Assembly (NCBI GenBank): GCA_035544015.1
Contig: DATKIP010000010.1
Coordinates: 6,449-70,448, forward strand
Source: Candidatus Saccharimonadia bacterium
GTDB lineage: Bacteria; Patescibacteriota; Saccharimonadia; UBA4664
Direction: 5' to 3'
DNA: 64,000 bases
Shown piece by piece: positions 1,928 to 32,020 of the stretch. The position numbers and the translations under genes are program-made. The notes below the pieces were generated by a model. It did no database searches. It was given only the letters and a program-made list of their open reading frames with translations, and was not told the DNA's origin. Position 1 is the stretch's first letter, and every line of letters begins with the position of its first letter.

Positions 1928-4900
1928 CTACCGCGCAGCCGTAAAGGTATTGCGGTATTGGAAATAATCTAAAACGAGCGCCCGACCCACCGTTCCGGCT
2001 TGTTTAATAATCGAAAAAGACGGCTCTGTACCATTCGTCGTACCGGTAGGTACGTTCGTCGCACTCGCGATACTGCCAATCGAAACATCGTCCACAAAGT
2101 ATTCGATGTTATTCGTGGCATGCACCCACACCTTGAAATGGTGCCAGCCGGCTGAAAAGCTTGTGGTCGAGGCTGTTTCCGTGACCGAACCACCCTTGGC
2201 CACCGCATAGACCCATTTCGTCGTACTTACTGCCCGATCAATTTTAAAATACATACCGTCGGTGCAAGCTCCAGTCTGACTATCACACAGACCCATATAA
2301 ACGTCATAATCATTGGTGGCATCTGGCACGGTCGGAATATTAACCGCAAATTCCATTTCTTCGCCTCCACCCACAATCGTTTGCTCGGGCCCGGCGCTAC
2401 CGTACCATACGCTCGCCTTCCCCGTCGTTGTGGTGCCGGTAATCATCGAAAACTGACCAATTCTCGTCGCCAAATCAGGACCAGTGGCGGCCGATGAAGA
2501 ACTAGTTCCACTCGCGCCTGAATTCCAATTTCTCCCCCCGTCCACAAATTCTTCTTCAATATTAAAGCCCCATAATAACCCCGCCGGATCATTACAAAAT
2601 CGCCACGAAGAATCATAATAACAACGCATTCGCCGATAGCCGGAATTGTAGTACATCGCTCCGTCAAGACCAGATGGATCGACGGCAACCGTCTTGGTAT
2701 CGAGCACCAGAACCGCCCCCACCGTATCGGGCGTCCGATTGCCCACATACACTCGGTCATTTGAAGTATCCACAAGCAGTTCTGACAATCCGCCACCATC
2801 CTGCACCTCAAAGGCGTCACCAGCCACCTTTACGAGCGCTGTCCCATCCACCTCCAGCATGCGCGACGGACTACCGGTACCAATACCCACTTTGCCCACA
2901 GCAATCGAACCATTGTAGGCCAGGAGTATGTTGCCATCGGTACCGCTATTGACCTTAGCCCCACCGTAGGCTAGCACGTCGCCACCGTTGGCGTTGCCGG
3001 TGGTGCCGGCCGCCGCCCCAGCCGCCAGCGTCAGCGACCCGCCGGCAACGCCCGTAGCCCCGCTGCCGCCGGCCCCCGCCGTCACCGTGAGAGCATTACC
3101 GGCCGCGTTGGTGGTGCGCGTAAGCACGTTCACGGCGCGCGTCGAGCCCTCGCCAAAGGTCAGATCGGCGCTCGCCACACTGGCCGTCGGCAAATTCACC
3201 CCGATCTGCCCCGACGAATTAACATCAAACAAAATCTTGGAGCTCCCCGCCAGATACAAAGGATATCGGTTGGTACCCGACGTAAGGTTATCCACATACA
3301 CCCCATACGCGTTGGTCGGCGCCACCGAGCCGGCGTTATCCGCCACCTTCAGCACATAGCTATTGGTCACCGCCGAGCTGAGCGTATTCTCAGCCAAAAT
3401 CCCAATCGCGTTCGTCACCGCCCCGGTACCACTATTCACAATAGTTTTTCCCGCAAATCCAATGAGCCGACCAGTCGACACGTTACTCCCCTGCCAGCTC
3501 ACCTGACTATAAGCCGCCATGTAATCCCCGCTATAAGTAATCGAGCCCCCGCTGGCGGGCTGGGCAATAAAGCCATTGCCCAAAGTCGTCGCTGAGTTGG
3601 CCGAGCCCGGCGATGTCGTCAGAGTAGATCGCGCCCCCACCCCAAATCCCGTAGTGTCACTATTGGTCATATCGATCGAGACCGTCGGAATCCCCCCGGT
3701 GGCCGTACCGGTCAAACTCACCGCCCCCGTCACCGTCAAACCCCCCGTACCCTGAATGAGCCCCGTCCCCGCATTCACCCCCACCGCCGTCAGTGCCCCG
3801 GCTGCACTCACCTTTGCCAATGTCGTACCCGCGCTGTTCTGCGCCTGAAACAAATCACCGCTTTGACTCACCGCACCCTGCACCACCAATACTGCGTTGC
3901 TAGCTGCATCTGAAACAAAGAGCCCACTGCTAGTCACCACCCCCCTACCCGAAGCCCAGGCATTACCAATCGTTCGGCTATAAACCCGGACAGTCGAACC
4001 CGTCCACAATTGAGCCCCCCATGCCCTCACCGTTCCCGATCCAGCGGTACCGCCGGGGAAAATAACCGCCACCATGTTACCCGTAAACCCCGTGCCATTC
4101 TGCGTCACACTAAACCGTTGCCAGGTCGTAGTAGCAGTCACCGTAGTTTTGGTTCCCGTCCCCAAAGTCGAACCATCAATACGCAAATCCACCGCCTGCG
4201 TGCCAGTGGTCGTTTTGAGCCACACACTAAAGATAAAAGTCGAACCCGACGCAACCAAAGTCGAGGGCTGACTCACCAAGCCACCAGGGCTACTATCGGC
4301 CAAACTCTCAGCAGTGGTAGAGGTATTCGGCGCCGCATCAGTATCAGCCACCGGAGTAGTCACGTTTGTCTTCGTCCAAACCGCATTGTCAAATTGCTCC
4401 GAATAGAGCAGACCATTCCCACTTTTTCCAATACCGCCAAAGGAACTATTGATAATACCCAACATCTCCAGATCTCCCCCCGCGTTCACTCGGCCAATGG
4501 TCGCCCCCGTGCTATCCTGTACCTGCAAAAAGTCCGCCGTCTGGCTGCTGGCGCCCTGAATCACCACGCCCGTGTTCGAGGCCACATTCGTTGCCACGTT
4601 CAAGGCCGTTTGCGACCCGCCAGCCGCCCCGGTCACGCCCACCGTCCCGGTCGCCGCCGATACCGTCAGATAATCCACGGTGGCGCCACTATTTTGAACC
4701 CGCAACAAGTACCCCGTTTGACTCGTCGATTGTTTTATCACGGCCGTATCAGCACTCGTGGAACCATTGTTGACCAGGGCAAAGTTGCCGTTCTGAAAGC
4801 CCGTACTATTCTGAATATAATTGCCCGAACCCGCCGCCGGCGTACACACCGTACCGCTACATACCGTCGTCCCGCCAATTTTGTATGCCCCCGAAGCCTG

Positions 4901-6145
4901 AATATTCACGCTCAAATCCGAAGCGCTGGCCGTCAGCAAGGTAGTAGCGTCGGACTTCAGCGCCAGATCCCCGCCGCTCGTCTTAAAATACGCCGTCGAG
5001 CTCCCGCCTTCCCACGAAAAACCCGCCAATCGATTCTCGCTCTGGCTCCACAGCGCAATCGCCGGCCACAAGTTACTATTCGTCCGCGCGTCAAACACCG
5101 ACAACCCTGTGCCGTGATCCGCTGCCGCACCGGTGAGCCCGGTCGCAATCACCGCCGCTCCCGCCGCCACGGCGTACTTTGAAACCGCCAGCGTACTCGG
5201 GATGCCGCCCGTCACCGCCGCGTACGATGTCAGATTCGAACCCGCCGCCGAGAAAATCGCTCCGCCGTTCACTTCAAACGTCGCCTGCGGATTAGCCGTA
5301 CCCAGATTCACCCCCACCCGGTTATTCGACGTATCCACGGTCAAAATATTGGTCGTCGTTCCCGCCTTTTGCACCACGAGAGCCGCCACAGAATCGGTGC
5401 TGGGCCGAAACACCGTCTGCCCCGCATTGTTAATCTGCAGCACCACCGCCGCGCCGCGCTGCAGGTTGATGATATCCGCGGTACCACCCGTCTTGTTGAT
5501 GCCGATCGAAGGGTTCGATGTCGAGCTGTCGGTTTGCACCCCCTGGGCCAGCTGCACAAATTGCCCGCTCGTCAGCCCACCCAACTTCCCTGCATTATCG
5601 GCCTGCAACGCATACACCGCCGAGCTGAGTCGCTTCATCGGCAGCAATTCGCCGTCGTACGTGGGCGTATTTGACACCGCCGTCCCGCCCACATCCATGC
5701 TCAGCCACAGCGTATCCTGGTTGAAGTCTATAGCCGTATTCGTGTTACCCTGGCAACTCCCCCCGCTAAACGCACAGTAAGTGCCAAGCGTCGCCGAGAA
5801 GTACCCGTTTTTGACCACCACCCCCGCCGACGACCCCGAGGCCACCGAATTTTGCCACAGCTCTGTCCACTTCAAGGTTCCGCCGGTATCACCTGCTACG
5901 TTACCCGGACCGTCTTGATAGATCTTAAACCGCAGGTTGTAATTACCGTCGGCCACCACCGCCCCAGTGTTGGTCAGCAAACGGCCTTGAAAATTAATCT
6001 GCTTATTAATCCCGGCTGCCGCCTGAACCGACGACTGACCGCCATCCCCCCCAACCACAACGAACCCAGCAACCGCGAGGGTCAGGGCTATACGTAGAGT
6101 GATGCGAACGAGACGCCGACAAAAACCGTGCTGGAGCTGACCCAT
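1928..6145 (-). CDS. giant secreted fibrous surface protein (1405 aa); Gly/Thr/Ala/Ser-rich beta-helix-like repeats; C-terminal concanavalin A-like/LamG-like lectin domain; no membrane or sortase anchor
   Basis: Signal-like N-terminus, then mature AAGINKQINFQGRLLTNTGAVVADGNYNLRFKIYQD module shared with the 18628-25395 giant protein. C-terminal WHHFKVWVHATNNIEYFVDDVSIG is ConA-like. Low-complexity repeats throughout. Confidence 0.8.
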   Translation of the reverse strand: MGQLQHGFCRRLVRITLRIALTLAVAGFVVVGGDGGQSSVQAAAGINKQINFQGRLLTNTGAVVADGNYNLRFKIYQDGPGNVAGDTGGTLKWTELWQNSVASGSSAGVVVKNGYFSATLGTYCAFSGGSCQGNTNTAIDFNQDTLWLSMDVGGTAVSNTPTYDGELLPMKRLSSAVYALQADNAGKLGGLTSGQFVQLAQGVQTDSSTSNPSIGINKTGGTADIINLQRGAAVVLQINNAGQTVFRPSTDSVAALVVQKAGTTTNILTVDTSNNRVGVNLGTANPQATFEVNGGAIFSAAGSNLTSYAAVTGGIPSTLAVSKYAVAAGAAVIATGLTGAAADHGTGLSVFDARTNSNLWPAIALWSQSENRLAGFSWEGGSSTAYFKTSGGDLALKSDATTLLTASASDLSVNIQASGAYKIGGTTVCSGTVCTPAAGSGNYIQNSTGFQNGNFALVNNGSTSADTAVIKQSTSQTGYLLRVQNSGATVDYLTVSAATGTVGVTGAAGGSQTALNVATNVASNTGVVIQGASSQTADFLQVQDSTGATIGRVNAGGDLEMLGIINSSFGGIGKSGNGLLYSEQFDNAVWTKTNVTTPVADTDAAPNTSTTAESLADSSPGGLVSQPSTLVASGSTFIFSVWLKTTTGTQAVDLRIDGSTLGTGTKTTVTATTTWQRFSVTQNGTGFTGNMVAVIFPGGTAGSGTVRAWGAQLWTGSTVRVYSRTIGNAWASGRGVVTSSGLFVSDAASNAVLVVQGAVSQSGDLFQAQNSAGTTLAKVSAAGALTAVGVNAGTGLIQGTGGLTVTGAVSLTGTATGGIPTVSIDMTNSDTTGFGVGARSTLTTSPGSANSATTLGNGFIAQPASGGSITYSGDYMAAYSQVSWQGSNVSTGRLIGFAGKTIVNSGTGAVTNAIGILAENTLSSAVTNSYVLKVADNAGSVAPTNAYGVYVDNLTSGTNRYPLYLAGSSKILFDVNSSGQIGVNLPTASVASADLTFGEGSTRAVNVLTRTTNAAGNALTVTAGAGGSGATGVAGGSLTLAAGAAAGTTGNANGGDVLAYGGAKVNSGTDGNILLAYNGSIAVGKVGIGTGSPSRMLEVDGTALVKVAGDAFEVQDGGGLSELLVDTSNDRVYVGNRTPDTVGAVLVLDTKTVAVDPSGLDGAMYYNSGYRRMRCYYDSSWRFCNDPAGLLWGFNIEEEFVDGGRNWNSGASGTSSSSAATGPDLATRIGQFSMITGTTTTGKASVWYGSAGPEQTIVGGGEEMEFAVNIPTVPDATNDYDVYMGLCDSQTGACTDGMYFKIDRAVSTTKWVYAVAKGGSVTETASTTSFSAGWHHFKVWVHATNNIEYFVDDVSIGSIASATNVPTGTTNGTEPSFSIIKQAGTVGRALVLDYFQYRNTFTAAR

Positions 6146-6236: not shown

Positions 6237-7169
6237 TTACCGCTCCAAAAGCAAATGTCGACGACGCAATTTTCGCAGTTCGCGACGTTCGCCCAGCCAA
6301 AAAAATATCACCATCACCACCGCCAAACCATACAGCGGCCAGGCTGTCACCAATGCCCCCGGCAAGGCCCCCAGTCCGTGCGACGCGCCGTAAGCCTCCA
6401 CCGGTCCGTTCACGACCGTCACCACCTGAAGATAAGCCGTATTCCCCAAGCTGTCCGTCACGCGCACGATCACCTGATACGTCCCAGGCTGCGCGTAGGT
6501 GTGACGAGCCGTCACCGCCCCCTCTCCCGTCTGGCTCGACAAACTCGTGGCGTAATCGCCAAAATCCCAGCTCACCGCGTACGGACCCACGCCACCCACA
6601 ATCGTAATCGTACGCGCAATCTGTTCCCCCGGATTGCCCCCCAGCACTGTTTGGCTGGTCTCCAGAAACAGCTGTTTGCCCACCGTGCCCGCCGTCCGGT
6701 CCAGCGAGGGCGCATCATAAAACACCGTTACCGCCGGCGAATCCGGCCCAAATTGGCCGAGCGCATCGGATACCCGCGCTACCAAGCGATTGGCCCCAGC
6801 AAACAAGTCCACCAGCAGCGAAAAGGTGCCGTCGTCACGACACACGGTCGCGCCCGCAAATACCTCGTTTTTCTCGATCGTCACAAACGTCCCCGCCGGA
6901 CACGCTCCCGACACCGTCACCGGAATGCTCGAGGTATGCGAACCATCGCTGGGGCTCAGAATCGTCGCCGACACGCTCGGAGCCGGCCCGCGCACCGTGC
7001 CGATGAGCCCCACCGAGCCCGATTGCGGATTCACCGCCGGCGCCGCCGCCGAAACCGTCAGGCTCGCGCCCACCAGCAACAACCCCGATACCAGCAGCCC
7101 AAACAACAATCCCGCGTACGAAGTGTGCCGATGCGGCCTCACCCTGCCAAAATGCTCGTTGCCCAGCAT
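6237..7169 (-). CDS. PKD-domain bitopic membrane protein (N-terminal signal-anchor, C-terminal TM helix plus basic tail)
   Basis: VSWDFGDYATS...HTYAQPGTYQVIVRVTD is a textbook PKD motif. C-terminal ...VVMVIFFWLGERRELRKLRRR. Paralog of 32021-32983. Confidence 0.75.
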   Translation of the reverse strand: MLGNEHFGRVRPHRHTSYAGLLFGLLVSGLLLVGASLTVSAAAPAVNPQSGSVGLIGTVRGPAPSVSATILSPSDGSHTSSIPVTVSGACPAGTFVTIEKNEVFAGATVCRDDGTFSLLVDLFAGANRLVARVSDALGQFGPDSPAVTVFYDAPSLDRTAGTVGKQLFLETSQTVLGGNPGEQIARTITIVGGVGPYAVSWDFGDYATSLSSQTGEGAVTARHTYAQPGTYQVIVRVTDSLGNTAYLQVVTVVNGPVEAYGASHGLGALPGALVTAWPLYGLAVVMVIFFWLGERRELRKLRRRHLLLER

Positions 7170-8143
7170 TACCGGCGGTTATTCGCCTGTTCAATGATGT
7201 GCTGGTTGTACCGGCGCAGGCCCAATCGCAGCAGGAAGAACAATACCAACAGGCCCACCAGCACCAGCCCGATCAATCGCCACGGAATCACCCAAAACGT
7301 CAGCGTGCTATCGAGCTTTTTGTTCCCGGCGTACGTCAACGACAATTTGGCCGTATACCGACCAAACAGCCGCTTTTCGCTCCAAGCCAGCTCAAACCGC
7401 CGAATACTATCGGGCAGCACATTGCCACCTTTGTCGTTAACCTTCAGATTAGCTACCTGCCGGCCAAACATATTGGTGATCTTCACCGACCCCTGCGGTT
7501 TTTCGTGCACACTGCCGTCATTCTTGACCCGCACCAAAAAGTCCAGCGGCCCATACTCAAACCAAGGTCCCGGCTTACCCTGCCGCGTCACACCAAATTC
7601 CGTCAACGACAACTGATCTTTAATCTGCCCGCTCACTTTGAGCAATATCAACGTCCCCACGCTCGCCGACAAGGCCACGCCCGTACCCTCAAGCTCCGGC
7701 GGCACCGCCGTAAACCGCACCACCCCAAAGTGTCCGCCCGGCTCCGCGTTCGCCGGCACCGCAATGCTCACCGTAGTCGACTTCAATTCTTGCGGCGCCA
7801 ACCTCAAATCCGGCACCCCCGACACCCAATATTTAAGCGAAAACCGCGTGGCGCCCGTTTCATCGAGCAGCAACCTCGGCTTACCCTCTTCGTCGGCCCC
7901 GGCACCAAAGTCGTCGGCCTTGCCCTTGGCGATCAACTCACCGCGCGTCACATTGCGCACACGAATAGCAGCCGTGACCGTCTGGCCCGGATCCGCCTCG
8001 AGCTCGATCACGGGCGGCGAAATTTCCAATCCCTGGCCGGGCGAACCCACGGGCGGCGTGGGCGTGGAGGCCCAAGCCAACGTGGGGGCCACCATTACAA
8101 CGCCCAGGAGACTAATTAGTCCACTCACATACCACTTACGCAT
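7169..8143 (-). CDS. DUF916/DUF3324-like (CscA-like) cell-surface protein with C-terminal TM anchor
   Basis: Signal peptide MRKWYVSGLISLLGVVMVAPTLAWA. GSVHEKPQGSVKITN and FWVIPWRLIGLVLVGLLVLFFLLRLGLRR at the C-terminus. Paralogs at 25635-26579 and 26588-27652 share the GNVHVVP and WVIPW motifs. Family assignment by motif and topology only. Confidence 0.55.
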   Translation of the reverse strand: MRKWYVSGLISLLGVVMVAPTLAWASTPTPPVGSPGQGLEISPPVIELEADPGQTVTAAIRVRNVTRGELIAKGKADDFGAGADEEGKPRLLLDETGATRFSLKYWVSGVPDLRLAPQELKSTTVSIAVPANAEPGGHFGVVRFTAVPPELEGTGVALSASVGTLILLKVSGQIKDQLSLTEFGVTRQGKPGPWFEYGPLDFLVRVKNDGSVHEKPQGSVKITNMFGRQVANLKVNDKGGNVLPDSIRRFELAWSEKRLFGRYTAKLSLTYAGNKKLDSTLTFWVIPWRLIGLVLVGLLVLFFLLRLGLRRYNQHIIEQANNRR

Positions 8144-8206
8144 TACGATCAGTGTATAGCATAAGCCAGATATGGCGCAACTCGACTGTTTACGAATGCC
8201 AAGCCA

Positions 8207-9229
8207 TTAAAACGAAGCAGTACAAATATATGTCATAGTCGCCGTATACACTCCCGCCGCCTGCGCGCCACCAATATTCACGATATACGATGACGTAAAC
8301 GTATTCGCGTTCGTGGGCGCCAGCCCCGCGGCCACCACGTCACCACTCGCGAACCGATACAAATCAGGCGTGCCATACGCACCGCTAAACGTCCCACTGC
8401 CCGCACCGCTCGGATCTGCCCCCAGCGCCGGGGTCCCATTGGCCCGCAAATTCAGGCCAAACTGGCTCGTCCCGATCACACTCCCCGTCTGCGTCGCCAA
8501 GGCTGGTATCGTATTTACACCCGACGCCAACGTGGTACCCGTAACAGTGATCGCGTAGCCATTCGCCGCATTCGTCTGCGCCTGCATCACGCTCGTGCCC
8601 GACCGCGTCACCGTGGGCGAAAAATCTCCAAAATCAATCGTCGAGCCACTTACCGTCGTGCAGTTGCCCGCAATCGACGTACCGACACAAAACACCAGAA
8701 TCTCCGGCGTCACCCCGGTAAGCTGCACCGGCTGGGCGGTACTCAGCGCCACCGTGCCCGTATCGACCGCCCCCGTTGCACCGTCGGTGCCCGTGTAGGT
8801 CGTAATGCGCACAAAGTAGCTCAAGTTGGCTGTGCTCGGGTTGGTGATAGACCCAAGCGTAAAACTCATGGCCGTTCCCGCACCCACCGGCGCCGCCGTG
8901 CGCGTAATATACGGCGCTCCATTCGAGCCGTTCACCATACTAAACCCGCCCGGGCTCTGCGCCGCCAACGTCGCGCTCGTAGTCACCACGCCAGCCGGCG
9001 TCACGCACGCCCCTGTGGGCGCACCACAAATCTGAAAACCCACGGAGCCGATGCTAGCCGCCGTCGCCGTGGTCGCGTTCACGGCGTAGCTGGTGCTCAC
9101 GCCCTGGCCGCTCGATCCCACCACCACATTGCGGGGCGCCAAGCCAGCCGCCTCGGTGGCCAGTGGCATCAATCCAGTCACCCACACCCCCGCCACTATG
9201 AGTCCAGTGCGCAGTTTGCCCATGATCAA
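8207..9229 (-). CDS. secreted WxL-like surface protein (divergent C-terminal WxL-type motif)
   Basis: Signal peptide. Conserved FQICGAP, LVFCVGTS and FGLNLR-N-TP-G-D-SG motifs. C-terminus GVYTATMTYICTASF resembles G-Y-G-LTWTL of WxL domains with W replaced. 4-nt overlap (ATGA) with the upstream gene. Confidence 0.55.
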   Translation of the reverse strand: MIMGKLRTGLIVAGVWVTGLMPLATEAAGLAPRNVVVGSSGQGVSTSYAVNATTATAASIGSVGFQICGAPTGACVTPAGVVTTSATLAAQSPGGFSMVNGSNGAPYITRTAAPVGAGTAMSFTLGSITNPSTANLSYFVRITTYTGTDGATGAVDTGTVALSTAQPVQLTGVTPEILVFCVGTSIAGNCTTVSGSTIDFGDFSPTVTRSGTSVMQAQTNAANGYAITVTGTTLASGVNTIPALATQTGSVIGTSQFGLNLRANGTPALGADPSGAGSGTFSGAYGTPDLYRFASGDVVAAGLAPTNANTFTSSYIVNIGGAQAAGVYTATMTYICTASF

Positions 9230-10317
9230 AACGTTGCAGTACAGATGTACGTTAACGTCGCCGTATACACACCTGCCGCTTGATCGCCGCCCACATTCAC
9301 GACATACGAGTTGGTAAACACATTGCTCTTCGTCACCCCCGCCACACTCGCTACCGTATCGCCATTGAAAAACCGAAAGCTATCGGGCGTGTTGTAGCCG
9401 CCAAATCCCGTCGCCGTACCGAGGCCGCTCACGTCCGTGCCCACATTGGGAGTCGCGTTATCGCGCACATTGGTGCCAAATTGCGCCACCCCTGTAGCAG
9501 CACTACAACTCGGCGTGCAACCGCCGGAATTCCCGCTCTGCGTCCCCATGGCCGCAATGGTGTTCGAGCCGCTCGTGAGCGTGGTGCCGTGAAGCGTGAT
9601 GGCGTAGCCAAAACCCGCATTGGTGCTCGCGCTCATGAGGCTCGTGCCGGTGTTCGTGGCTGTGGGCGAAAACACCCCCAGGTTCACCGCCGACCCCGTG
9701 ATATTGGTGCAATCGGTCCCGCTCGTTCCCACGCAAAACACGAGGCTCTCGGGCATCACGCCGCTCGCCACGATCTGGTTGGCCGTATCCATCGCCACCG
9801 CCCCAAAGTCCGTCCCCGGATACGCCGGCGCTGCAGCCGCCGCATCAGTATAGGTTGAGATGCGCAGAAAATACTCTTTGTTGCTAGCGCTCGGATTCGT
9901 CACATTGTTGAGCACCACCGAGGCCGCACCGTTCAAGGTAGCCGCCGAATGCGTCAGCACCAGATTCGTCCCCGAGGCCGAGGCGCCCGTCTGCGACCCC
10001 ACCGACCACCCCAAGCCGAGCGACATACTCCCAAGCGTCGCCGCCCCCAGGCTGGCCCCGCTCGAGTCACCCGTACCCGCACAGGCCGTAGTCAGCACCG
10101 GCGAGTCACAAATCTCAAATTTGATCGAGCCCAACGATTGGCTCCCCGAAAGCGTAAACCCAATCGTGTACGCCACCCCCGTGGCGCCCCCGGCCGAGGT
10201 CGACACCACCGCATTGCGGCTCGTCAGCTGGCCAGCCGCCTGCGCGACAGGCGATAACCCAGCACACACCACGAGCCCCACAACCATCGCCGCTATTATT
10301 TTTTTTGTTTGTTTCAT
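9226..10317 (-). CDS. secreted WxL-like surface protein paralog
   Basis: MKQTKKIIAAMVVGLVVCAGLSPVAQA signal. FEICDSP, LVFCVGTSGTDC, FGTNVRDNATPNVGTDVSG. C-terminus GVYTATLTYICTATF. Confidence 0.55.
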   Translation of the reverse strand: MKQTKKIIAAMVVGLVVCAGLSPVAQAAGQLTSRNAVVSTSAGGATGVAYTIGFTLSGSQSLGSIKFEICDSPVLTTACAGTGDSSGASLGAATLGSMSLGLGWSVGSQTGASASGTNLVLTHSAATLNGAASVVLNNVTNPSASNKEYFLRISTYTDAAAAAPAYPGTDFGAVAMDTANQIVASGVMPESLVFCVGTSGTDCTNITGSAVNLGVFSPTATNTGTSLMSASTNAGFGYAITLHGTTLTSGSNTIAAMGTQSGNSGGCTPSCSAATGVAQFGTNVRDNATPNVGTDVSGLGTATGFGGYNTPDSFRFFNGDTVASVAGVTKSNVFTNSYVVNVGGDQAAGVYTATLTYICTATF

Positions 10318-10348
10318 AGCTTACTCACCCCCGCGGACGAGAAATCAA

Positions 10349-11452
10349 TTAGAACGTACCGGTCGCGACCCAAGTAAACGTCGCACTATATGCACCAGGC
10401 TTGGTCGTATTCCCTGCTTGCGCCGCATAGGCCACAGTGTAAAGGTTGGGAACGGTCGGCCCAGTAGAGCTCGCCACCGTCCGCGGCGTAGCACCGGCCT
10501 GGAACGCGAAGTTGTCGATCGTATTGTATGGCGCGCTCACCGCTCCCGAACCCGACCCACTAATGTCGGCGCCAATGTTGGGCGTAGCGTTATCGCGCAA
10601 GTTAATGCCAAACTTCCCCGTCCCAGCCACAAACGTTCCCGCCGTGCCCCCAAAATCCGTGATACAGTCGTTGCTCGAGCTCAGACTCCCCGCGCAAGCC
10701 GTGCCGCCGGTGCCGCCCGGACTCGTCGTGATGTAGGTGATCACGTATCCCGTAGTCGCGTTCGTATCCACCGCCATGAGCGAGATGCCGCCGGAAGGCG
10801 TCGAGGAGCTCAACACGTTGTCGCTGCCCACACCCAAGTTCACCGTGGTTCCAGTCAAACCACCGCCCCCGCAACCCGTGCCGCTCGTGCCCACACAAAA
10901 CGTCAGGCTTTCTTGCACGTTCGCCGCCAAACTAATCTGGCGCGCCGTCGACACCGCCATGGCGCCGAAGTCGAGCTCAGCCGAAGCCCCCGTGTCGGAA
11001 TACGTCGTAATACGCGTGTAGTAACTCAAGTTGGCCGTATTCGGATTGGTCACCGCGTTAAACTGCGCGGTAAATGTAGCATTACCCGCGGTACCCGTGG
11101 CGTTCGAAATGATCACCTGGGTAGCATTCTGCGTTCCCGAAATCGCAAAGCTACTGAGTGCTGCCGAGGTCGGCGCCGTAGTCTGGAACGTCGCAGTCGC
11201 TATGCTCGCACTGCTCGGCGCCGCACAGGTGGTTTGCTGTAGCGGCGAGTCACACACCTGAAATTTAATTCCCTTCACCGTCGTCGCGGTCGGACCCGTC
11301 CACGTAAACGCATAGCTCGTACTCGCCGCCGCCGCCGAACTCGTGAGCGTAGTCGACCGAGCCGTAATCTGAGCCGCACTCGCCGCCGTGGGGATACTCG
11401 ACGCCCCCAGCACCAACGACACCAACCCAAACCACGTCACCGCCCGACGCAT
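10349..11452 (-). CDS. secreted WxL-like surface protein paralog (start taken at the MRRAVTWFG signal peptide; the ORF track extends to 11539 via a TTG codon)
   Basis: FQVCDSP, LTFCVGTSGTGC, FGINLRDNATPNIGADISG. C-terminus GAYSATFTWVATGTF retains the W of WxL. Confidence 0.55.
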   Translation of the reverse strand: MRRAVTWFGLVSLVLGASSIPTAASAAQITARSTTLTSSAAAASTSYAFTWTGPTATTVKGIKFQVCDSPLQQTTCAAPSSASIATATFQTTAPTSAALSSFAISGTQNATQVIISNATGTAGNATFTAQFNAVTNPNTANLSYYTRITTYSDTGASAELDFGAMAVSTARQISLAANVQESLTFCVGTSGTGCGGGGLTGTTVNLGVGSDNVLSSSTPSGGISLMAVDTNATTGYVITYITTSPGGTGGTACAGSLSSSNDCITDFGGTAGTFVAGTGKFGINLRDNATPNIGADISGSGSGAVSAPYNTIDNFAFQAGATPRTVASSTGPTVPNLYTVAYAAQAGNTTKPGAYSATFTWVATGTF

Positions 11453-11596
11453 CAACCCGCGGTAATGAGCGTATAAAATTTCCCGCTTGGTCATGTGCTT
11501 GATAAATCCTTCATTTATTTTGCTGCGGCCACTATCCAATTCATCATAGCATAAGCACTGTTTCGAGTGTCAATGAACTCGCGTGCGGCAAGCACT

Positions 11597-12373
11597 TTAA
11601 TAGGTCCCGGTAGCCACCAACTCCAATGTACTCGTATATTTTCCACCTGGCGTCGTCGTGCTCATGTTGGCCAAAAAGGTCATGGTGTAGTCCGTCTCAC
11701 CCGACGACTTCGGCGCCGAAGCCACCACTTCACCGCTGTTAAAGCGCCATTTATCCGAAATCGTATACGGCCGCGTCGTGCCATAGGTTCCGGTCACCCC
11801 GTCGCCCGCCACGCCGTAGCTAAATGATCCCGACGGCACTTGCGCCGGATTGGCGCCCACCGCCGCCGACGTATTAAGCACCGTGTTCACCCCAAATTGC
11901 TCCGTCCCCACACTCGACGCCGTATCGGTAGTCAGCGGGGTCAGCGCGTGACTACCGTTTTTGGGTGGCGTCCCGATAGCGGTTATCACATAGCCATACG
12001 TCGTGTAGTTGATGGCCGAAAACGTCGCTACTCCCGTCGCCTTCACGCTCGTCGACAAGGCCCCCAAATTAACCGTAGCCGTATTCACAATAAACGTCAG
12101 CCCCGGCTGAGCCGTCGTATTAAACCCCGCTCCCGACGAATAATTCGTCGAGCTCGAAGTGCCCACCGCGGTTTCACCCAAACTACTACCCCCATCGTCC
12201 ACCCCCGGCGCGTAGCTATAATGCGACGAAGCCCCCGTGAAATCCCCGCCGGCTCCCACTTCACTCTCGTTAAGGCTATAGCTCGCCGATTGCTGCAGCT
12301 CGGCATGCGCCGCCCCACTCGCGGCCACCGCCACGACACACGCCACCACCAACTGTCGACTCCAACGTCTCAT
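11597..12373 (-). CDS. shorter secreted WxL-like surface protein paralog (258 aa); first gene of module-A operon
   Basis: Signal MRRWSRQLVVACVVAVAASGAAHA. FGVNTVLNTSAAVGANPAQVPSG. C-terminus GKYTSTLELVATGTY. Confidence 0.5.
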   Translation of the reverse strand: MRRWSRQLVVACVVAVAASGAAHAELQQSASYSLNESEVGAGGDFTGASSHYSYAPGVDDGGSSLGETAVGTSSSTNYSSGAGFNTTAQPGLTFIVNTATVNLGALSTSVKATGVATFSAINYTTYGYVITAIGTPPKNGSHALTPLTTDTASSVGTEQFGVNTVLNTSAAVGANPAQVPSGSFSYGVAGDGVTGTYGTTRPYTISDKWRFNSGEVVASAPKSSGETDYTMTFLANMSTTTPGGKYTSTLELVATGTY

Positions 12374-12483: not shown

Positions 12484-13431
12484 ATGCCCCCGGGCAGCAC
12501 CCCACCTTTGGCGCCGTCTCCCCAGACGCCCCTCCCCAAACCGCCTCCGCCGGCCAAAAACCGGCACGCTGGCTGGCACCGACTTACCGACCGGGCCAAT
12601 GTCGTCGGCGCCGTGGTCGGCCTCTTTGCCTTTTTGCTCGCCGTCGGCGGGGTAGTGGGATTTTACTACGCCCGGCTCAACCAGCCGGCCAAAACCGAAC
12701 CCAAGAGTAATGTCACCGCCCTCAGCCCCGCTGAGCTCGCCAAACTCAGCGAGATCGGCAATAGCCTCGGCAGCTCCGGCCAAACCCTCAACATCGGCGC
12801 CGGCGCCCTCTTCCGCGGCAAGGTCGATGTGGCCGGCGACCTTTCCATCGGCGGCCGCCTCAACGCCAACGGCCCCGTCACCCTCAGCCAGCTCAATGTC
12901 ACCGGTGGCGGGGGTGTGATCGGCCTCAATGTCGGCTCCAATCTCAACGTCACCGGCACCACCGTCCTGCAGCAAACACTGAGCGTCACCGGACTCGCCA
13001 CCTTCGCCGGCGGCATCAATGTCGGCGGCAATGCCAGCTTCAACGCCATCAACGCCAGCTCACTGGCCGTGCGCAACCTCAGCATTTCCGGTCCGCTCGT
13101 CGTCGGCCACCTCACCACCCAGGGCCCCACGCCGGGCTTCGTCACCGGCCCGGCCGTCGGCTCAGGCGGCACCGCCAGCATCAGCGGCAACGACACCGCC
13201 GGCACGCTCAATTTCAACACCGGCGGCGGCCCACCCAGCGGCGTGCTCGGCACCATCACCTTCCGCGCCGCCTACACCGCCACCGTCCACGTGCTGCTCA
13301 CTCCGCTCACCGGCGCCGGCGCCGCCACGCCCGCCTATGTCACCCGCACCACCGGCGGCTTCCAGGTGCACACCGACACCGCCCCACCCAGCGGCGCCGT
13401 ATTGAGTTATGATTACTTGGTAACGCAATAG
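12484..13431 (+). CDS. membrane-anchored protein: Pro-rich N-terminus, one TM helix, beta-helix-like L-x-V-x-G repeats, conserved C-terminal beta-sandwich (H-type-lectin/tail-fibre-like?) domain
   Basis: TM VVGAVVGLFAFLLAVGGVVGFYY. Repeats LNVTGGGGVIGLNVGSNLNVTGTTVLQQTLSVTGLATFAGGINVGG. C-terminal GTITFRAAYTATVHVLLTPL...VLSYDYLVTQ. Paralog of 33709-34836. Divergent from the module-A operon. Confidence 0.6.
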   Translation: MPPGSTPPLAPSPQTPLPKPPPPAKNRHAGWHRLTDRANVVGAVVGLFAFLLAVGGVVGFYYARLNQPAKTEPKSNVTALSPAELAKLSEIGNSLGSSGQTLNIGAGALFRGKVDVAGDLSIGGRLNANGPVTLSQLNVTGGGGVIGLNVGSNLNVTGTTVLQQTLSVTGLATFAGGINVGGNASFNAINASSLAVRNLSISGPLVVGHLTTQGPTPGFVTGPAVGSGGTASISGNDTAGTLNFNTGGGPPSGVLGTITFRAAYTATVHVLLTPLTGAGAATPAYVTRTTGGFQVHTDTAPPSGAVLSYDYLVTQ

Positions 13432-13450: not shown

Positions 13451-14026
13451 ATGCCTCGCGTAGAACCAAATCCCCCCTCTGTCATTCTCGGCAAATACTG
13501 GCCCCTCACCCTCTTGGCCGTCGTGCTTGTACTCGGCGGCATCGGCGCCGTGGTCTACCAAAACCGCACCGGCCACCGCCTCTCCCTCACGCCCACTCCC
13601 AGCGCCCCCGCCGCCACCCCCGCCTCGACTGCCACCCTCTATCTCTTCCCCGCCGCCGGCACCATTACCGCCGGCGGTACGCTCACCATCGAGATCCGCG
13701 AAAACAGCGGCGCCGCTGCCGTAAACGCTGTACAGGCCAACTTCACCTACCCCGCCGATAAGCTCGATTTCGTCAGCGCCGACGCCGCCACCGGCGCCTT
13801 TAGCATTGCGGCCGAATCCACCGGCCAAAACGGCCTGGTCAAGATCGCCCGCGGCACCATCAAACCCGTGAGCTCCGACCATTCAGTCGCCAAAGTCACC
13901 TTCCGCGCCAAAACCACGCCCGGCACCGCCGCTCTGAGCTTCGCCGCCGGCTCGGCCCTCATTTCGACCCCCGGCGCCGCCAACATCCTGGGCACCCCCA
14001 CCGGCGCCACCCTCACCATCAAATAA
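13451..14026 (+). CDS. membrane-anchored protein with cohesin-like beta-sandwich domain (tentative)
   Basis: N-terminal TM WPLTLLAVVLVLGGIGAVVY. LTIEIRENSGAAAVNAVQANFTYPADKLDFVSADAATGAFSIAA...VAKVTFRAKTTPGTAALSF resembles type-I cohesin strand pattern. Confidence 0.4.
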   Translation: MPRVEPNPPSVILGKYWPLTLLAVVLVLGGIGAVVYQNRTGHRLSLTPTPSAPAATPASTATLYLFPAAGTITAGGTLTIEIRENSGAAAVNAVQANFTYPADKLDFVSADAATGAFSIAAESTGQNGLVKIARGTIKPVSSDHSVAKVTFRAKTTPGTAALSFAAGSALISTPGAANILGTPTGATLTIK

Positions 14027-14039: not shown

Positions 14040-17000
14040 TTACGGTGCCGTGTCCAAAATGCAGCCGTTCGCCGGCGTCGCATTACACCCCGTGTTCGTA
14101 AACGCCGCCCCGTGCCGCAGCCGCCGCGTCGGGTTGGCGTGGTAGTACAAATCAATCTCCGACACGTTCGTCTCCGCGCTCGTCGCCACATCCGGGAAAG
14201 TACCCGACAAGCTGTCATCGAGCACCAATACAATCAGGTAGTTAAATGCCACCCCCGTATTCGCACCACTCGAATCCAGCGGCTGCACCCCGTAGAAGTT
14301 GTTAAAAATCACCGGGTCAAACACTTGCGCCACCCCAAATTGGGTCGCGCTCGCCTGCTCGGTGTAAAACCGCACCGCCACCTTGCTTTCCGGCCCCGAC
14401 AGCGATCCCGTGAGTACCAGCTGACTCGGCGAGGTATCCACCTCGGTATTAAACAATTTCGAATAATGCCCCGTCCGCGCGATCGCGAACTGCCCCGCGC
14501 GATCATTGGCCGCCGACACGGTAGTACATACCCCGGCGCTCAACACACAACCACCCGTCACATACATCACGCCGCCAAACAACGCCGCCGCGCCATGCGC
14601 ATGCGCGCCGCTCATCGCATTCGCCGAATGTTGGGTGGTACCGAGAGTACCATTCGCATTAATGTCCACATAGAGCACCTCAGCCGTCGACCCCTCGTCT
14701 CCCACAAAATACATATAGCCGTTCGCAGCCACCGCCTGCCGCGCCACCATCCCGCGGGCCACATCGGTGGTGTAGCTCCAGCTGGCGATCGAACCATCCG
14801 CCGCCACGGTGCCAAACTGCACATCGAGCAAATTATTGGTGCCATCGGTACCACCTATCACGTACAACTTGCCGTTATACGACACGAGGCTAAAGCCCGA
14901 CCGCGCCGTCGTGAATCCTGTCGTGTTGAGCGTCCACGTCCCCAGCCCGCCAGTACTAGTATTAATAGCCGCGTAATACACATCGCTTTTCTTCGTTCCC
15001 GAGCCATTATCTCCGCCCGCCACAAACAAATAACCGCGTGCAATCGCCGCCCCAAAGCTGGTGCGATCCGTCCCAGCCGGCAGATCGGCGTTCGTCCACG
15101 AGCCGCCCAGCGTACCCGTACTATCGATCGTGGTGTACCACACCGTCGCTGTCGCCCCCGAGCTCGCACTCTTGCCACCGATCACATACAAATACCCGTT
15201 ATACGCCACTGCCTGCAACGACGACCGCACCTCGCCACTTGGCAGCGAAGTTTGCGCCGTCCAGCTGCCCGTCACCTTGCCTCCCGGATCAATGTCGGCT
15301 CGCTCGATATCACCAAGCCCCGTACTGCAAGCCCCCGTCGTGTACACTCGGCAGCCTCCGATCACATACAGCTTACCGTTGTACGCCACCGACGCGTGAT
15401 CCGCCCGCCCCGCCGTTCCGCCGACCGTCGGCAAATCCACCACATTGCCGGTACCAGTGGTAAACGCCCCCGTCTGCCCATTGCCACCATTATTGGGCTC
15501 ATACAGCTCGGTCGTGTTCGCCGTCGTCACGAACGCCGTCGCGCACTGCTTGAACGTCCCCGCCGCCAGCGTCCCAGCGCACCCGCCCATGATGTACATG
15601 TACCCACCCGTCGCCACCGCCGTCGTCTCGCCCCGCGCCGTCGAGAGCTGCCCATCCGTCTTGGTGTACGACAACGTCGTCGCCTGGCCAATGTTGGCCG
15701 CCGCCCACACATTGCCGGCGTCCGGCGCCGTCGGGCTGCCGGTCGTGGGATCAAGCTTGGTCCAGCGAATCGTCGCCTGCTGCGTCGTCGATCCCGTATT
15801 GTACCCGCCAAAACTATACAAATAGCCATTGTGCACCGCCATGCCCATCCCCCGGCTCGCAAACGCCCCTGTCAATGTCCCCAGATCGGCGATCGTCAAA
15901 TTCCCGCTGTTGTCGATCGCGATCCGCTCGGTCGCATGCGCCGTTGTCACGTACGTCCCGCCCGAAGTCGACATGCCGCCCACCACATACAGCCAGTTGC
16001 CCCACTGCCCGCCGCCGATGTCCCACCGCGCGTTGGCGAGCGTCGCGGCGGTAGCCGGATTGGACGTCAGCTTGGCCGTCGCCCACGCCCCCGGCGCATT
16101 GCTCGCGATGGTCGATTTATAGATCGTAGTCGCTACCGTCGTGCCATTGCTCAGTCCCCCCATCACGAATATCATATTGTGCCACACCGCCGCATACCCA
16201 AACGCCAGCGCTCCCGGCAAAGCATTGGCCTCCATCGTAAACGTCCCCAGCGTACCGTTCGATGCCTGCGTCGCCGACTGCACCGTCGCTTGGTACGAAT
16301 CCACATTGCCGGTGGTATACTCCACACCCCCGATCACGTAAATTTTGTTGTTGTACCCCACCACCATGTGCCCAATCCGCCCGGCCTTGTTGGTGCCGTT
16401 GCCGATCAATACATTACCCGCCGAGGCAAACGCCCCCATCGAGCCGTTCGCATTGATCTGGGCGTACTCCACCAGCGAGCTATAGGTGTTGTTGCACGTC
16501 GCGTTATTGGCCGTGCTGCAGCCCCCGATGTAATACATGTACCCGTTGAGCGCCACGCCCTTGCCGCCCATACGCGCCGTTGTTGAGTTGCTGTCAAACG
16601 GAAAACCGCTGTGGCCGCTCATGCCGTTATCGAAGCGGCCCACATTATCGAGGTTGGTTTTAAACGTTCCACCGCGCACTCCCGGCCCCGGGCTCGGGTC
16701 GTCGCCGTCGCATTGATTGGCACTAATCTCAATCGTGCAGCCGCCCACAAAATACAAATATCCGTTATAAAACGCCGACGACGGATTGCTGCGTTCCGGA
16801 GCCGTGGCACCCGTGTAGTCGTTCGATTGCTGCCACTCTCCCACGCTGCCGTCAGCATTCAGTACCGCGTATTGCGTATCCGAAATGAAATTGCTCGCCG
16901 CCCCGCACGGAAATCCCGTCACCCGGCAGCCGCCGTACACATAAATGTGGCCGCGTTCCACCGCCACCCCATGATCGCGCCGCGCCGTCGGAAACGCCGT

Positions 17001-18626
17001 CGTGCTGATCCACGAGCCCAGCGTGCCGTCGCTTTTGATCGGCGCGTACTCCACCGTACTGAGCACCGTCGGCGTACCCGTGCGGCCGCCCGTCACGTAC
17101 ACGAAGCCATTGTAAGCCGCACCCGAGAACCGGTCGCGCGCCGTCCCCAGCGCGGTCGTAGTGGTCCAGCTCGTGATGGTGCCGTCGCCGTTGATACGCG
17201 CATACTCCACACTCGTGAGCAAACTCCCGTTGCTCGTAGCGCCCTCACCACCCATCACGTACACCACGCCCTGATAATTAGCCCCTGCCATGTAGGCCCG
17301 CGCCGTACCCAGGCTAGTCGTGGTGCTCCACGTCCCCACCGAACCATCCGAGTTGATCTTGGCGTACTCCACGGTCGCGATCGGGTTGTTGCTGGTATTT
17401 TCCCCGCCCACCGCATACAAATAGCCGTTGTAACCAAACGCCACCAGCCCCTGCCGCGCCGTGTTCAGGCTCTGGTTGGTGCTCGTACCCGTCCAGGTCA
17501 GCGCCCCGGCCGCCCCAATCGAAGCGCTGTACACTACGTTGGTCGGCGTAGTGGCCGTACCGCTGTCGGCGCCGCCCCCAATGAGATACACAAAATTGTT
17601 GTACGCCACGAGCGCCCCCGCGTACCGTGCCACCGTGATGTTGGTGCCGGTGGTCCACGCCACCACCGATCCACCGCTCAGCGGCGCCCGGCCGATTTGG
17701 TCGGCCACCGAGGTGAGGTCGATGTTGTCGTCCACGCTTCCCAACACAAAGTCGGCCGTACTCCGCAACAAAAAGGTCGGATCAATCGAAAGCGGATAAT
17801 TTGCTTTGGCTAAGCCACGAGCCCGCACCACCAAATCCTTCCCGCTCAGCCCAAACCGCGCACTCACCGCACTGCGCTGGCCCGTTTCGCGCACCACCGG
17901 TGCCGGAATCGCAAACATCAAGTAGGTTTTGGCCCCCGCCACGCGCGCCTTATCGAGCATCTCGCGGTCATTGTCGCTGCCGTAGCTCACATTGCCATAC
18001 AGCTCCGGACTGGCCGTATAAAATCCCACGCTCCCGTCATCCTCCAGCCGCGCCTCCACCGTATCCGGAATATCCAAACGATAATGAAATTCCATCGCGT
18101 CCGCCTTCGGCGCCGAGGTCAGCACGATGTCTTCTTTCAGCCCATTGCCCTTGGGCGTAAACATCATCTGCCCCGCCGCATCTTTGAGCGGATACGTCAC
18201 CTGCCCATTACTGCTCCGCCCCTCCATGAGCGCCACCTGCGGCACAAATTTCACCGACACGTCGTTGACATTGTCGTGCACCTCCACCCCTTGCGCCGGA
18301 TTGTCAGGCAACGTAGCCGAATACAGCTGCGTGTCTTTTTTGCCCCCGGCCCCCACCGCCATTTGGAGCTTATCTTTCGGATCAGACCACGCGTCGGCTT
18401 GACCCTCGGCATTAAACACGCTCGCGTGTTTATCTTTGTCATACCGCAATTTGCTCATGAGCGCCGGGCTCGGCCGCTCCGCCACCGCTGCTGCCGCCGG
18501 CGTCATGCGATAGCGCTCATTCGTTACCAGCCAATCCGCCACCGGCGCCACCATACCCGCCAGCAACACCCCCATCACCACCGCATGCACCGGCCGGCGC
18601 ACATCGAGATTGATACCCAGCTTCAC
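14040..18626 (-). CDS. giant secreted multi-Kelch-repeat (beta-propeller) protein, 1528 aa, no anchor
   Basis: At least 20 repeats of the Kelch signature (YNGYLYAVGG, YQGVVYVMGG, YNGFVYVTGG, AYNGKLYVIGG, ...TVEYA.I..DG..G.W). GTG start at 18624-18626, 1 nt after the upstream stop (18628-18630). An alternative ATG (MGVLLAGMVAPVA) lies about 51 nt in. Confidence 0.75.
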   Translation of the reverse strand: MKLGINLDVRRPVHAVVMGVLLAGMVAPVADWLVTNERYRMTPAAAAVAERPSPALMSKLRYDKDKHASVFNAEGQADAWSDPKDKLQMAVGAGGKKDTQLYSATLPDNPAQGVEVHDNVNDVSVKFVPQVALMEGRSSNGQVTYPLKDAAGQMMFTPKGNGLKEDIVLTSAPKADAMEFHYRLDIPDTVEARLEDDGSVGFYTASPELYGNVSYGSDNDREMLDKARVAGAKTYLMFAIPAPVVRETGQRSAVSARFGLSGKDLVVRARGLAKANYPLSIDPTFLLRSTADFVLGSVDDNIDLTSVADQIGRAPLSGGSVVAWTTGTNITVARYAGALVAYNNFVYLIGGGADSGTATTPTNVVYSASIGAAGALTWTGTSTNQSLNTARQGLVAFGYNGYLYAVGGENTSNNPIATVEYAKINSDGSVGTWSTTTSLGTARAYMAGANYQGVVYVMGGEGATSNGSLLTSVEYARINGDGTITSWTTTTALGTARDRFSGAAYNGFVYVTGGRTGTPTVLSTVEYAPIKSDGTLGSWISTTAFPTARRDHGVAVERGHIYVYGGCRVTGFPCGAASNFISDTQYAVLNADGSVGEWQQSNDYTGATAPERSNPSSAFYNGYLYFVGGCTIEISANQCDGDDPSPGPGVRGGTFKTNLDNVGRFDNGMSGHSGFPFDSNSTTARMGGKGVALNGYMYYIGGCSTANNATCNNTYSSLVEYAQINANGSMGAFASAGNVLIGNGTNKAGRIGHMVVGYNNKIYVIGGVEYTTGNVDSYQATVQSATQASNGTLGTFTMEANALPGALAFGYAAVWHNMIFVMGGLSNGTTVATTIYKSTIASNAPGAWATAKLTSNPATAATLANARWDIGGGQWGNWLYVVGGMSTSGGTYVTTAHATERIAIDNSGNLTIADLGTLTGAFASRGMGMAVHNGYLYSFGGYNTGSTTQQATIRWTKLDPTTGSPTAPDAGNVWAAANIGQATTLSYTKTDGQLSTARGETTAVATGGYMYIMGGCAGTLAAGTFKQCATAFVTTANTTELYEPNNGGNGQTGAFTTGTGNVVDLPTVGGTAGRADHASVAYNGKLYVIGGCRVYTTGACSTGLGDIERADIDPGGKVTGSWTAQTSLPSGEVRSSLQAVAYNGYLYVIGGKSASSGATATVWYTTIDSTGTLGGSWTNADLPAGTDRTSFGAAIARGYLFVAGGDNGSGTKKSDVYYAAINTSTGGLGTWTLNTTGFTTARSGFSLVSYNGKLYVIGGTDGTNNLLDVQFGTVAADGSIASWSYTTDVARGMVARQAVAANGYMYFVGDEGSTAEVLYVDINANGTLGTTQHSANAMSGAHAHGAAALFGGVMYVTGGCVLSAGVCTTVSAANDRAGQFAIARTGHYSKLFNTEVDTSPSQLVLTGSLSGPESKVAVRFYTEQASATQFGVAQVFDPVIFNNFYGVQPLDSSGANTGVAFNYLIVLVLDDSLSGTFPDVATSAETNVSEIDLYYHANPTRRLRHGAAFTNTGCNATPANGCILDTAP

Positions 18627-25395: not shown

Positions 25396-25483
25396 GCGTC
25401 GGCTGTTTCCACCCGTTACCCGAAATCTTCGACTCGTTGCGAGACGACTGGGTACGCGCACACCTTCACACAATTACTCCCTA

Positions 25484-26579: not shown

Positions 26580-26587
26580 CTCGATAC

Positions 26588-27652: not shown

Positions 27653-27665
27653 CTCAAGACCCAGG

Positions 27666-32019: not shown

Positions 32020-32020
32020 C

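Follow-up and report, generated by a model that had tools for sequence, protein, structure and literature searches.

What do seven secreted proteins, encoded in two separate clusters on one contig from a bacterium of the candidate phyla radiation (CPR), do at the cell surface? The contig (DATKIP010000010.1) belongs to a metagenome-assembled genome (MAG) of Candidatus Saccharimonadia (assembly GCA_035544015.1). We analyzed 64,000 nucleotides of it (positions 6,449 to 70,448), which we call the window; coordinates below count from the first letter of the window. A first-pass annotation, made from the sequence alone, proposed that the seven proteins are either a remote branch of the WxL family or a new peptidoglycan-binding fold. 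We conclude, with good confidence, that the window has two pam-type pilus loci, at 6237-12373 (locus 1) and 25635-32983 (locus 2), both on the minus strand, and that the seven proteins are the pilins of these loci. They are new members of a family of adhesion pili (Pam) of ultrasmall CPR bacteria, whose first description dates from 2026; locus 2 is a divergent variant.

The family is known from cryo-electron microscopy (cryo-EM) of filaments of Ca. Mycosynbacter amalyticus, which identified the pilins PamA and PamB (bioRxiv 10.64898/2026.03.03.709456). In these, an N-terminal sandwich of nine strands is followed by a single linker strand and then by a truncated immunoglobulin (Ig)-like C-terminal domain that accepts the linker of the neighboring subunit. 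The whole system is described as the pilins PamA, PamB, and PamE, the tip protein PamT, the chaperones PamC and PamD, and the anchor PamR (same preprint). In M. amalyticus, PamA is WP_260763287, PamB is WP_260763280, and the two chaperones are WP_260763277 and WP_260763284.

Seven proteins from two loci

We named the proteins of locus 1 p1 to p4, those of the second locus p5 to p7, and the chaperone genes c1 to c3. We compared them with the June 2026 release of NCBIfam, in which the models for this system are NF058581 (Pam_pilin_C, "Pam pilus system pilin subunit"; cutoff 55 bits), the equivalog NF058579 (CPR_pilus_PamT, "CPR-type pilus protein PamT"; 240 bits), and NF058578 (CPR_pilus_PamR, "RbmA-like protein PamR"; 300 bits). 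The seven proteins, with lengths in amino acids (aa), are:

8207-9229, minus strand: p1, two-domain Pam shaft pilin, 340 aa; 166 bits to NF058581
9226-10317, minus strand: p2, two-domain Pam shaft pilin, 363 aa; 141.4 bits to NF058581; 48% identity to p1
10349-11539, minus strand: p3, two-domain Pam shaft pilin, open reading frame (ORF) of 396 aa; 85.4 bits to NF058581 (E = 3.9e-24); 36% identity to p1
11597-12373, minus strand: p4, PamT-type tip pilin with the C-terminal pilin domain only, 258 aa; 244.3 bits to NF058579 and 140.5 bits to NF058581
27666-28724, minus strand: p5, divergent two-domain Pam-like pilin, 352 aa; 55% identity to p6, with which it shares a family profile
28833-29972, minus strand: p6, divergent two-domain Pam-like pilin, 379 aa; linked to p1 by comparison of the family profiles
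30123-31187, minus strand: p7, tip-like subunit, 354 aa, which begins like PamT, has an additional domain in the middle, and ends in the same type of C-terminal domain as p5 and p6; linked by an N-terminal match to NF058579 and by hhalign

All seven ORFs are present as the first-pass annotation described them, and all are on the minus strand. Each protein has a hydrophobic, signal-peptide-like segment at its N-terminus. (The true start of p3 is probably downstream of the ORF start, at the signal peptide MRRAVTWFGL...) Each also closes with a conserved terminal strand, Y-x-x-T-h-T-h-h, and the seven C-terminal strings that had been quoted are each exact. As a strict regular expression, the alignment pattern that had been drawn from those strings fits p1 to p3 only, and p4 to p7 fit a loose form only. 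The loose form, which we composed after viewing the sequences, matches the very end of p1 to p7 and of no other ORF, when all 312 of the window's stop-to-stop ORFs with 80 aa or more are considered.

Three internal motifs had been attributed to all seven proteins. They are found in p1 to p3 and partly in p4, and p5 to p7 have none of the three. Specifically, [FI][QE][IV]C[DG][AS]P and FG.N.R.N.TP..G.D.SG are confined to p1 to p3, while LVFCVGTS...C is present in its strict form in p1 and p2 only, is degenerate in p3 and p4, and is absent from p5 to p7.

None of p1 to p7 has a C-terminal LPXTG-like motif; each chain stops just past the last strand. That the seven are sortase-assembled pilins of the Gram-positive type has, in our view, a negligible probability.

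Family assignment

The scores of p1 to p4 against NF058581 are all above the cutoff, and p4 also passes the PamT equivalog. The source agrees as well: Pam pilins are a feature of CPR hosts (Saccharimonadia or Microgenomatia), and the contig is from a Candidatus Saccharimonadia MAG. p1 is 100% identical to protein VMT30_00170 of a Ca. Saccharimonadia MAG. For p4 we found 505 homologs, whose source names are solely Saccharimonadia or Saccharibacteria. The named homologs of p1, of p4, and of the neighboring gene are all "hypothetical proteins" from Saccharimonadia or Saccharibacteria; this is still the label in the database sources that give these proteins a name.

The proteins of locus 2 are more divergent. 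p5 and p6 have no match in NCBIfam or Pfam, and p7 matches NF058579 over residues 17-78 alone (E = 1.9e-7). Pfam identified nothing in any of p1 to p7, and neither p1 nor the p1-family profile matched a pilin, Pam, or WxL protein among the PDB sequences. With shallow profiles, p1 to p3 showed no significant similarity to p5/p6 or to p7. A full HMMER search with p6 yielded 430 cluster representatives (at 50% identity; E ≤ 1e-3), and with the resulting deep p5/p6 profile, hhalign aligned the p5/p6 family to the p1 family across both domains (probability 97.8, E = 1.2e-12, 297 columns). The PamT family is similar to the C-terminal domain of the p1 family (E = 1.9e-25) and to the p5/p6 family (E = 1.4e-5). 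In p7, the C-terminal domain (residues 212-354) is related to the p5/p6 family (E = 1.5e-12) and the N-terminus to the PamT family (E = 7.4e-6). From these profile-profile comparisons, we conclude that all seven proteins have one homologous C-terminal domain. The locus 2 branch, with its 430 cluster representatives, escapes the curated models, and therefore Pam-type pili are probably more widespread and more varied than annotated.

Some relatives of p6 are much longer. Among P0258, P0271, P0272, P0277, P0333, P0337, and P0344, some have 780-1640 aa with the entire pilin module at the C-terminus, and other relatives, of about 900 aa, have the N-terminal domain alone in common with p6. The relatives with a C-terminal pilin module may be tip adhesins with extra N-terminal domains, which recalls the "large WxL" proteins that we discuss below.

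Domain anatomy and conserved motifs

The AlphaFold2 (AF2) model of p1 has a mean predicted local distance difference test score (pLDDT) of 82.3. In it, residues 30-163 fold into an N-terminal sandwich of nine strands, residues 178-183 form a linker strand, and residues 209-338 form a β domain at the C-terminus. This corresponds to the published description of Pam pilins: a nine-strand sandwich, a single linker strand, and an open Ig-like domain at the C-terminus. The conserved motifs of p1 map onto the model as follows (the translations of motifs 1 and 3 were checked):

9005-9037, minus strand: motif 1, FQICGAPTGAC, the cysteine pair of the N-terminal domain
8660-8698, minus strand: motif 2, LVFCVGTSIAGNC, the inter-domain linker strand (178-183 in the AF2 model) and then a Cys-Cys loop
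8399-8461, minus strand: motif 3, FGLNLRANGTPALGADPSGAG, strand 256-260 of the C-terminal domain and a low-confidence loop at 266-272 in the AF2 model; in p1 to p3 only
8210-8254, minus strand: C-terminal motif, GVYTATMTYICTASF, the last β strand (332-338 in the AF2 model) of the truncated Ig-like domain

We examined the conservation of these motifs across 48 homologs of p1. In motif 1, C68 is invariant and C75 is nearly so, and this pair probably forms a disulfide; paired cysteines have been reported for Pam pilins (bioRxiv 10.64898/2026.03.03.709456). p3 has three cysteine pairs. In the linker, L178, F180, C181, and G183 are invariant, and in the C-terminal motif, G326, Y328, T331, T333, T337, and F340 are invariant. 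Many of the invariant residues thus lie in the linker strand and the last strand. In the cryo-EM study, PamA and PamB donate their linker strand, and conservation is reported to be highest in this linker and in the site that binds it (bioRxiv 10.64898/2026.03.03.709456). The linker strand of p1 is the presumed donor strand, and by the precedents of Pam and of chaperone-usher pili, the last strand would line the groove that receives a donor strand.

Helper genes of the two loci

Locus 1 encodes the PamT tip p4, the two-domain shaft pilins p1 to p3, a PamR-like anchor, and a single chaperone, which is membrane-anchored. The divergent locus 2 encodes a PamR-like protein, a 243-aa membrane protein, the tip-like p7, the shaft pilins p6 and p5, and two chaperones. 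The genes besides the pilins are:

7169-8143, minus strand: c1, membrane-anchored pilus chaperone, similar to PamC/PamD and homologous to WxLIP (DUF916, DUF3324, and a transmembrane (TM) segment)
26588-27712, minus strand: c2, second membrane-anchored chaperone, 374 aa; hhalign E = 1.1e-28 to the c1 family
25635-26714, minus strand: c3, third membrane-anchored chaperone, 359-aa ORF; hhalign E = 1.6e-15 to the c1 family
6237-7169, minus strand: PamR-like terminator/anchor, 310 aa, with Ig-like/PKD domains and a C-terminal TM helix; 296 bits to NF058578 (E = 2e-88)
32021-32983, minus strand: second PamR-like protein, which heads locus 2, 320 aa; 289.8 bits to NF058578 (E = 1.7e-86)

The model of c1 (pLDDT 87.1) has two β-sandwich domains and then a C-terminal TM helix at 288-322, as described for PamC and PamD. 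c2 ends with a TM segment and a basic tail, and the true start of c3 is probably downstream of its ORF start. In the PamR-like protein of locus 1, Pfam identifies PKD and Glucodextran_B domains. The gene order PamT, pilins, chaperone, PamR-like gene, and giant protein recurs on other contigs. We also compared the giant flanking proteins and the small neighboring ORFs of the window with the pilin profiles, and none of them matched as an extra pilin.

The 243-aa protein of locus 2 (31175-31906, minus strand) lies between the PamR-like gene and p7. It has one predicted membrane segment, no family match, and no counterpart in locus 1.

The chaperones are homologs of WxLIP

WxLIP is the obligate partner of the WxL proteins, and it consists of two Ig-like domains and a TM helix (PMC9772566, PMC10599100). 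For reference, we used the conserved DUF916 motif to collect 68 loci from Bacilli, which gave 65 WxLIP, 42 small WxL, and 14 large WxL proteins. The c1 family aligns with the WxLIP family over 220 columns that cover both domains (hhalign probability 97.5, E = 8.6e-12; P = 0.013 for the reversed control). Single chaperones also align with WxLIP: E = 8.7e-8 for c1, E = 6.3e-5 over 290 columns for c3, and P = 0.0024 for c2. The Pfam domain WxLIP_PGBD (PF06030) has a weak match in 35 of the 47 members of the chaperone family (best E = 2.4e-4), while PapD matches 0 of the 47. Comparing the chaperone profile with PDB sequences (a hidden Markov model against sequences) gave no match to WxLIP.

The structural comparison agrees with the profiles. 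When the c1 model was compared with the PDB by Foldseek, the best hits were 9i25_C ("WxLIP ... bound to long WxL") and 9i1y, with E of about 4e-10 and TM-scores of 0.54-0.56 on the target. These WxLIP structures outrank CfaA, RbmA, CsuC, and FimC, and Caf1M is among the further chaperone neighbors. The two entries, which were released on 2026-01-28, show WxLIP of E. faecium on its own or in complex with a long WxL domain; among solved structures, they are the closest relatives of c1. The chaperones of the window are homologs of WxLIP (DUF916/DUF3324), c1 clearly so.

The Foldseek hits to CfaA, CsuC, FimC, and Caf1M (E of 1e-9 to 1e-6) raise the question of whether the seven proteins could be ordinary chaperone-usher pilins, of either the archaic (Csu/SCPU) or the classical type. 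Also, p5 and p6 end in G-x-D-Y-T-D-x-I-T-V, which presumably recalls the ending of SCPU proteins. We consider this very improbable: WxLIP is closer to the chaperone in both sequence and structure, the chaperone has a membrane anchor, the pilins consist of two domains and would carry their donor strand between these and not at the N-terminus, and no Pfam Fimbrial, SCPU, or PapD match was found in the pilins or the chaperones. Neither locus has an usher-like gene between PamT and PamR. The loci hold only pilins, chaperones, and PamR-like genes (apart from the 243-aa membrane protein of locus 2), and the giant proteins that flank them show Kelch repeats or no Pfam domain.

Are the pilins related to the WxL domain?

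Since the chaperones are homologs of WxLIP, it is natural to ask if the seven proteins are, as had been proposed, a remote branch of the WxL domain. They would then be surface proteins that bind peptidoglycan non-covalently and are held by the WxLIP-like partner, and not subunits of a polymerizing pilus. Besides the partner gene, the layout of the loci resembles that of WxL clusters: there is a single-domain protein, there are multi-domain proteins that share a C-terminal domain, and there is a TM-anchored partner with two Ig-like domains. Also, the strand Y-T-A-T-M-T-Y-I-C resembles the WxL C-terminus, Y-x-T-T-L-T-W-x-L.

The sequence comparisons do not bear this out. The Pfam WxL model (PF13731) does not match any of the seven proteins at E ≤ 1, or any of 106 family members at E ≤ 10. 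A pair of W-x-[LIV] motifs is absent from the C-terminal domains of all seven, and p1 has just one tryptophan in the entire protein. When we compared the pilins by hhalign with the aligned WxL proteins (42 small and 14 large), P ranged from 0.008 to 0.36, depending on the profiles. This is no better than the controls. For unrelated neighbor genes against the pilin profiles, P was 0.035-0.75, with raw scores of up to 22.5, which equals the best score for a pilin against WxL; and 3 of 40 block-shuffled WxL alignments reached the best observed score. Real scores were slightly higher than reversed ones in most comparisons, and with hmmsearch the difference was 1-2 bits only. We tried whole proteins, trimmed domains, small, large, or pooled WxL, a pooled profile of Pam C-terminal domains, a low mact setting, global alignment, and hmmsearch, and the similarity was weak in every setting.

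At low stringency, hhalign aligns the pilins with WxL in a collinear way, and the xDFG strand and the terminal strand serve as anchors. These alignments are suggestive of a relationship but no more. By eye, we had paired the first WxL motif (GW.L.V) with NGYAITV and GGWIAW, but we dropped this pairing, as hhalign did not reproduce it.

The proposal of a remote WxL branch fails for these seven proteins because they match a pilin family (NF058581, NF058579) and do not match WxL; we consider it unlikely. Members of their family have been shown to be filament subunits (bioRxiv 10.64898/2026.03.03.709456), and peptidoglycan binding by WxL itself is largely a prediction from docking (PMC9772566, PMC10599100). 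The other proposal, a new peptidoglycan-binding fold, is unsupported: by cryo-EM, relatives of these proteins form filaments by donor-strand exchange (bioRxiv 10.64898/2026.03.03.709456). What survives of the WxL idea is kinship at the level of the system, which is supported by the WxLIP-like partner and the parallel architecture; membership in the WxL domain family is not.

A model for pilus assembly

From the family membership, domain architecture, operon content, taxon, and chaperone-WxLIP homology described above, and by analogy with the cryo-EM structure from M. amalyticus and with chaperone-usher precedent, we can propose how polymerization, strand exchange, disulfide formation, subunit order, and host adhesion might work for these pili. 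The subunits would be exported by Sec. The C-terminal domain of each would have an Ig-like fold that lacks one strand, and this fold would first be completed by a strand from the membrane-anchored chaperone. By donor-strand exchange, the inter-domain linker of the next pilin (LVFCVGTS in p1 to p3) would then replace the strand of the chaperone. The conserved C-terminal motif would be the final strand of the domain, beside the groove that receives the donor. The cysteine motifs would form disulfide pairs that stiffen the extracellular fiber. PamT would cap the tip, and PamR would stop growth and anchor the fiber in the membrane. The role of the fiber is probably attachment to a host bacterium.

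Several points weigh against our interpretation. p5 to p7 do not match NF058581, and their tie to the family is by profile-profile comparison only. No NCBIfam model matched c1, c2, or c3, and both PamR-like proteins score slightly below the cutoff of NF058578. Our comparison with PamA and PamB of M. amalyticus uses their published description, and the mechanism we propose for these proteins depends on homology throughout. Finally, p1 and p2 have an odd and apparently unpaired cysteine in the last strand (Cys336 in YICTASF of p1; Cys359 in YICTATF of p2), which the pilus model does not explain. This cysteine is nearly invariant in the homologs of p1 and is absent from p3 to p7. Conceivably, it could form a bond between subunits.

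Neighboring genes and other features of the window

The pam loci are flanked by giant secreted proteins, which are encoded at 1928-6145, 14040-18626, and 18628-25473 (all minus strand). Those of 1405 aa and 2281 aa have no Pfam domain, and the one of 1528 aa is full of Kelch repeats. The 1405-aa and 2281-aa proteins share an N-terminal motif, A-x-G-I-N-K-Q-[IV]-N-F-Q-G-[RK], directly after the signal peptide. A related contig (L069) encodes a 1690-aa protein in the equivalent place after its PamR-like gene. The giant proteins may be the "tail fibre-like" neighbors that are mentioned in the Pam preprint (bioRxiv 10.64898/2026.03.03.709456).

Two genes are divergent from PamT. The one at 12484-13431 (plus strand) encodes a membrane protein of 315 aa that matches no family, and the one at 13451-14026 (plus strand) encodes a protein of 191 aa that has a cohesin domain (PF00963, E = 2e-5). 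On contig L069, the pam locus is similarly adjoined by two cohesin-domain genes and a gene for a 319-aa protein.

Farther along the window is a low-GC island (40001-45418), with a GC content of 0.44 instead of about 0.60 elsewhere. It includes a protein with a SIR2_2 domain (41192-42196, plus strand) and a protein with a HerA/DUF87 ATPase domain (42186-44075, plus strand), a pair that looks like the SIR2-HerA anti-phage defense system. These are followed by a Schlafen AlbA_2 protein (44123-45418, minus strand).

Opposite the real minus-strand genes, overlapping antisense ORFs reach lengths of up to 824 aa (6255-7616, 9860-11242, 14112-16586, and others, all plus strand). They have no support as genes; such long antisense ORFs are due to the GC content of 60%. 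Throughout the window, the GC skew is negative (-0.16 to -0.30), in keeping with the location of nearly all identified genes on the minus strand.

Comparison with known systems

The closest known system is the Pam pilus of M. amalyticus. Both organisms belong to the class Saccharimonadia; the curated family models match p1 to p4 and both PamR-like proteins (the latter just below the cutoff); and the pilin anatomy, the TM-anchored two-domain chaperones, and the logic of the operon are alike. There are also differences. M. amalyticus has one operon, while the window has two separate loci. The window does not encode a pilin of the size of PamA (about 55 kDa), and its shaft pilins are all of the size of PamB or PamE. 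M. amalyticus has two chaperones, while locus 1 of the window has one. The pilins of locus 2 have diverged beyond the reach of the curated models, and its tip subunit has an extra middle domain.

Chaperone-usher pili, whether classical (Fim/Pap), alternative (CFA/I), or archaic (Csu), also have subunits with a truncated Ig-like domain, donor-strand complementation and exchange, a chaperone with two Ig domains, and a tip subunit without a donor strand. Unlike these systems, Pam has no usher and no outer membrane, and its chaperone is membrane-anchored. Also, the donor in Pam is the inter-domain linker and not an N-terminal extension, and there is no match at the level of sequence.

A further comparison is with the WxL/Csc clusters of Bacilli. 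In these clusters, small WxL proteins are a single domain, and large WxL proteins have N-terminal domains followed by a C-terminal WxL domain (PMC9772566, PMC10599100). The WxL domain has a mobile N-terminal strand, and AF2 predicts that a strand from WxLIP will "fit into a gap in WxL to complete the beta-sandwich" (PMC9772566, PMC10599100). The WxL and Pam systems are alike in having homologous chaperones (in sequence and in structure), a three-part layout (a single-domain client, multi-domain clients with a shared C-terminal domain, and a TM-anchored partner), a strand of the partner that is predicted to complete the β sandwich of the client, and clients that are secreted and lack an LPXTG signal. 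On the other hand, the clients in the window fail the Pfam WxL model and lack two W-x-L motifs, and no LPXTG protein is encoded in the locus. The hosts are CPR bacteria instead of Firmicutes, and WxL proteins are described as peptidoglycan-bound adhesins and not as filaments.

Because the chaperones are homologous and the three-part architectures match, a common origin of the Pam and WxL systems is plausible. We tentatively suggest, as something that might well be true but that we would not yet call probable, that the WxL/Csc clusters and the Pam operons of the CPR are two branches of one ancient, chaperone-assisted strand-complementation system of monoderm-type envelopes that works without an usher. 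PamC and PamD would then be the equivalents of WxLIP, PamT that of small WxL, and the shaft or tip pilins those of large WxL, and the truncated Ig-like domain at the C-terminus of the pilins would have its counterpart in the WxL domain. The chaperone half of this idea is supported, while the client half, which would relate the pilin domain to the WxL domain, is unproven. The preprint that described the Pam pilus (bioRxiv 10.64898/2026.03.03.709456) does not mention WxL or DUF916, and in an incomplete literature search we found no paper that joins WxL with donor strands or pili.

If Pam and WxL are indeed branches of one system, then WxL proteins would not simply sit on peptidoglycan: they would be completed, and perhaps polymerized, through donor strands. 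And if the clients are homologous too, the donor-strand model from the cryo-EM of Pam becomes a testable hypothesis for the assembly of WxL proteins. The homology of the chaperones with WxLIP already ties a host-attachment organelle of the CPR to a system for virulence and adhesion that is present in enterococci, listeriae, and lactobacilli and whose mechanism is unsettled.

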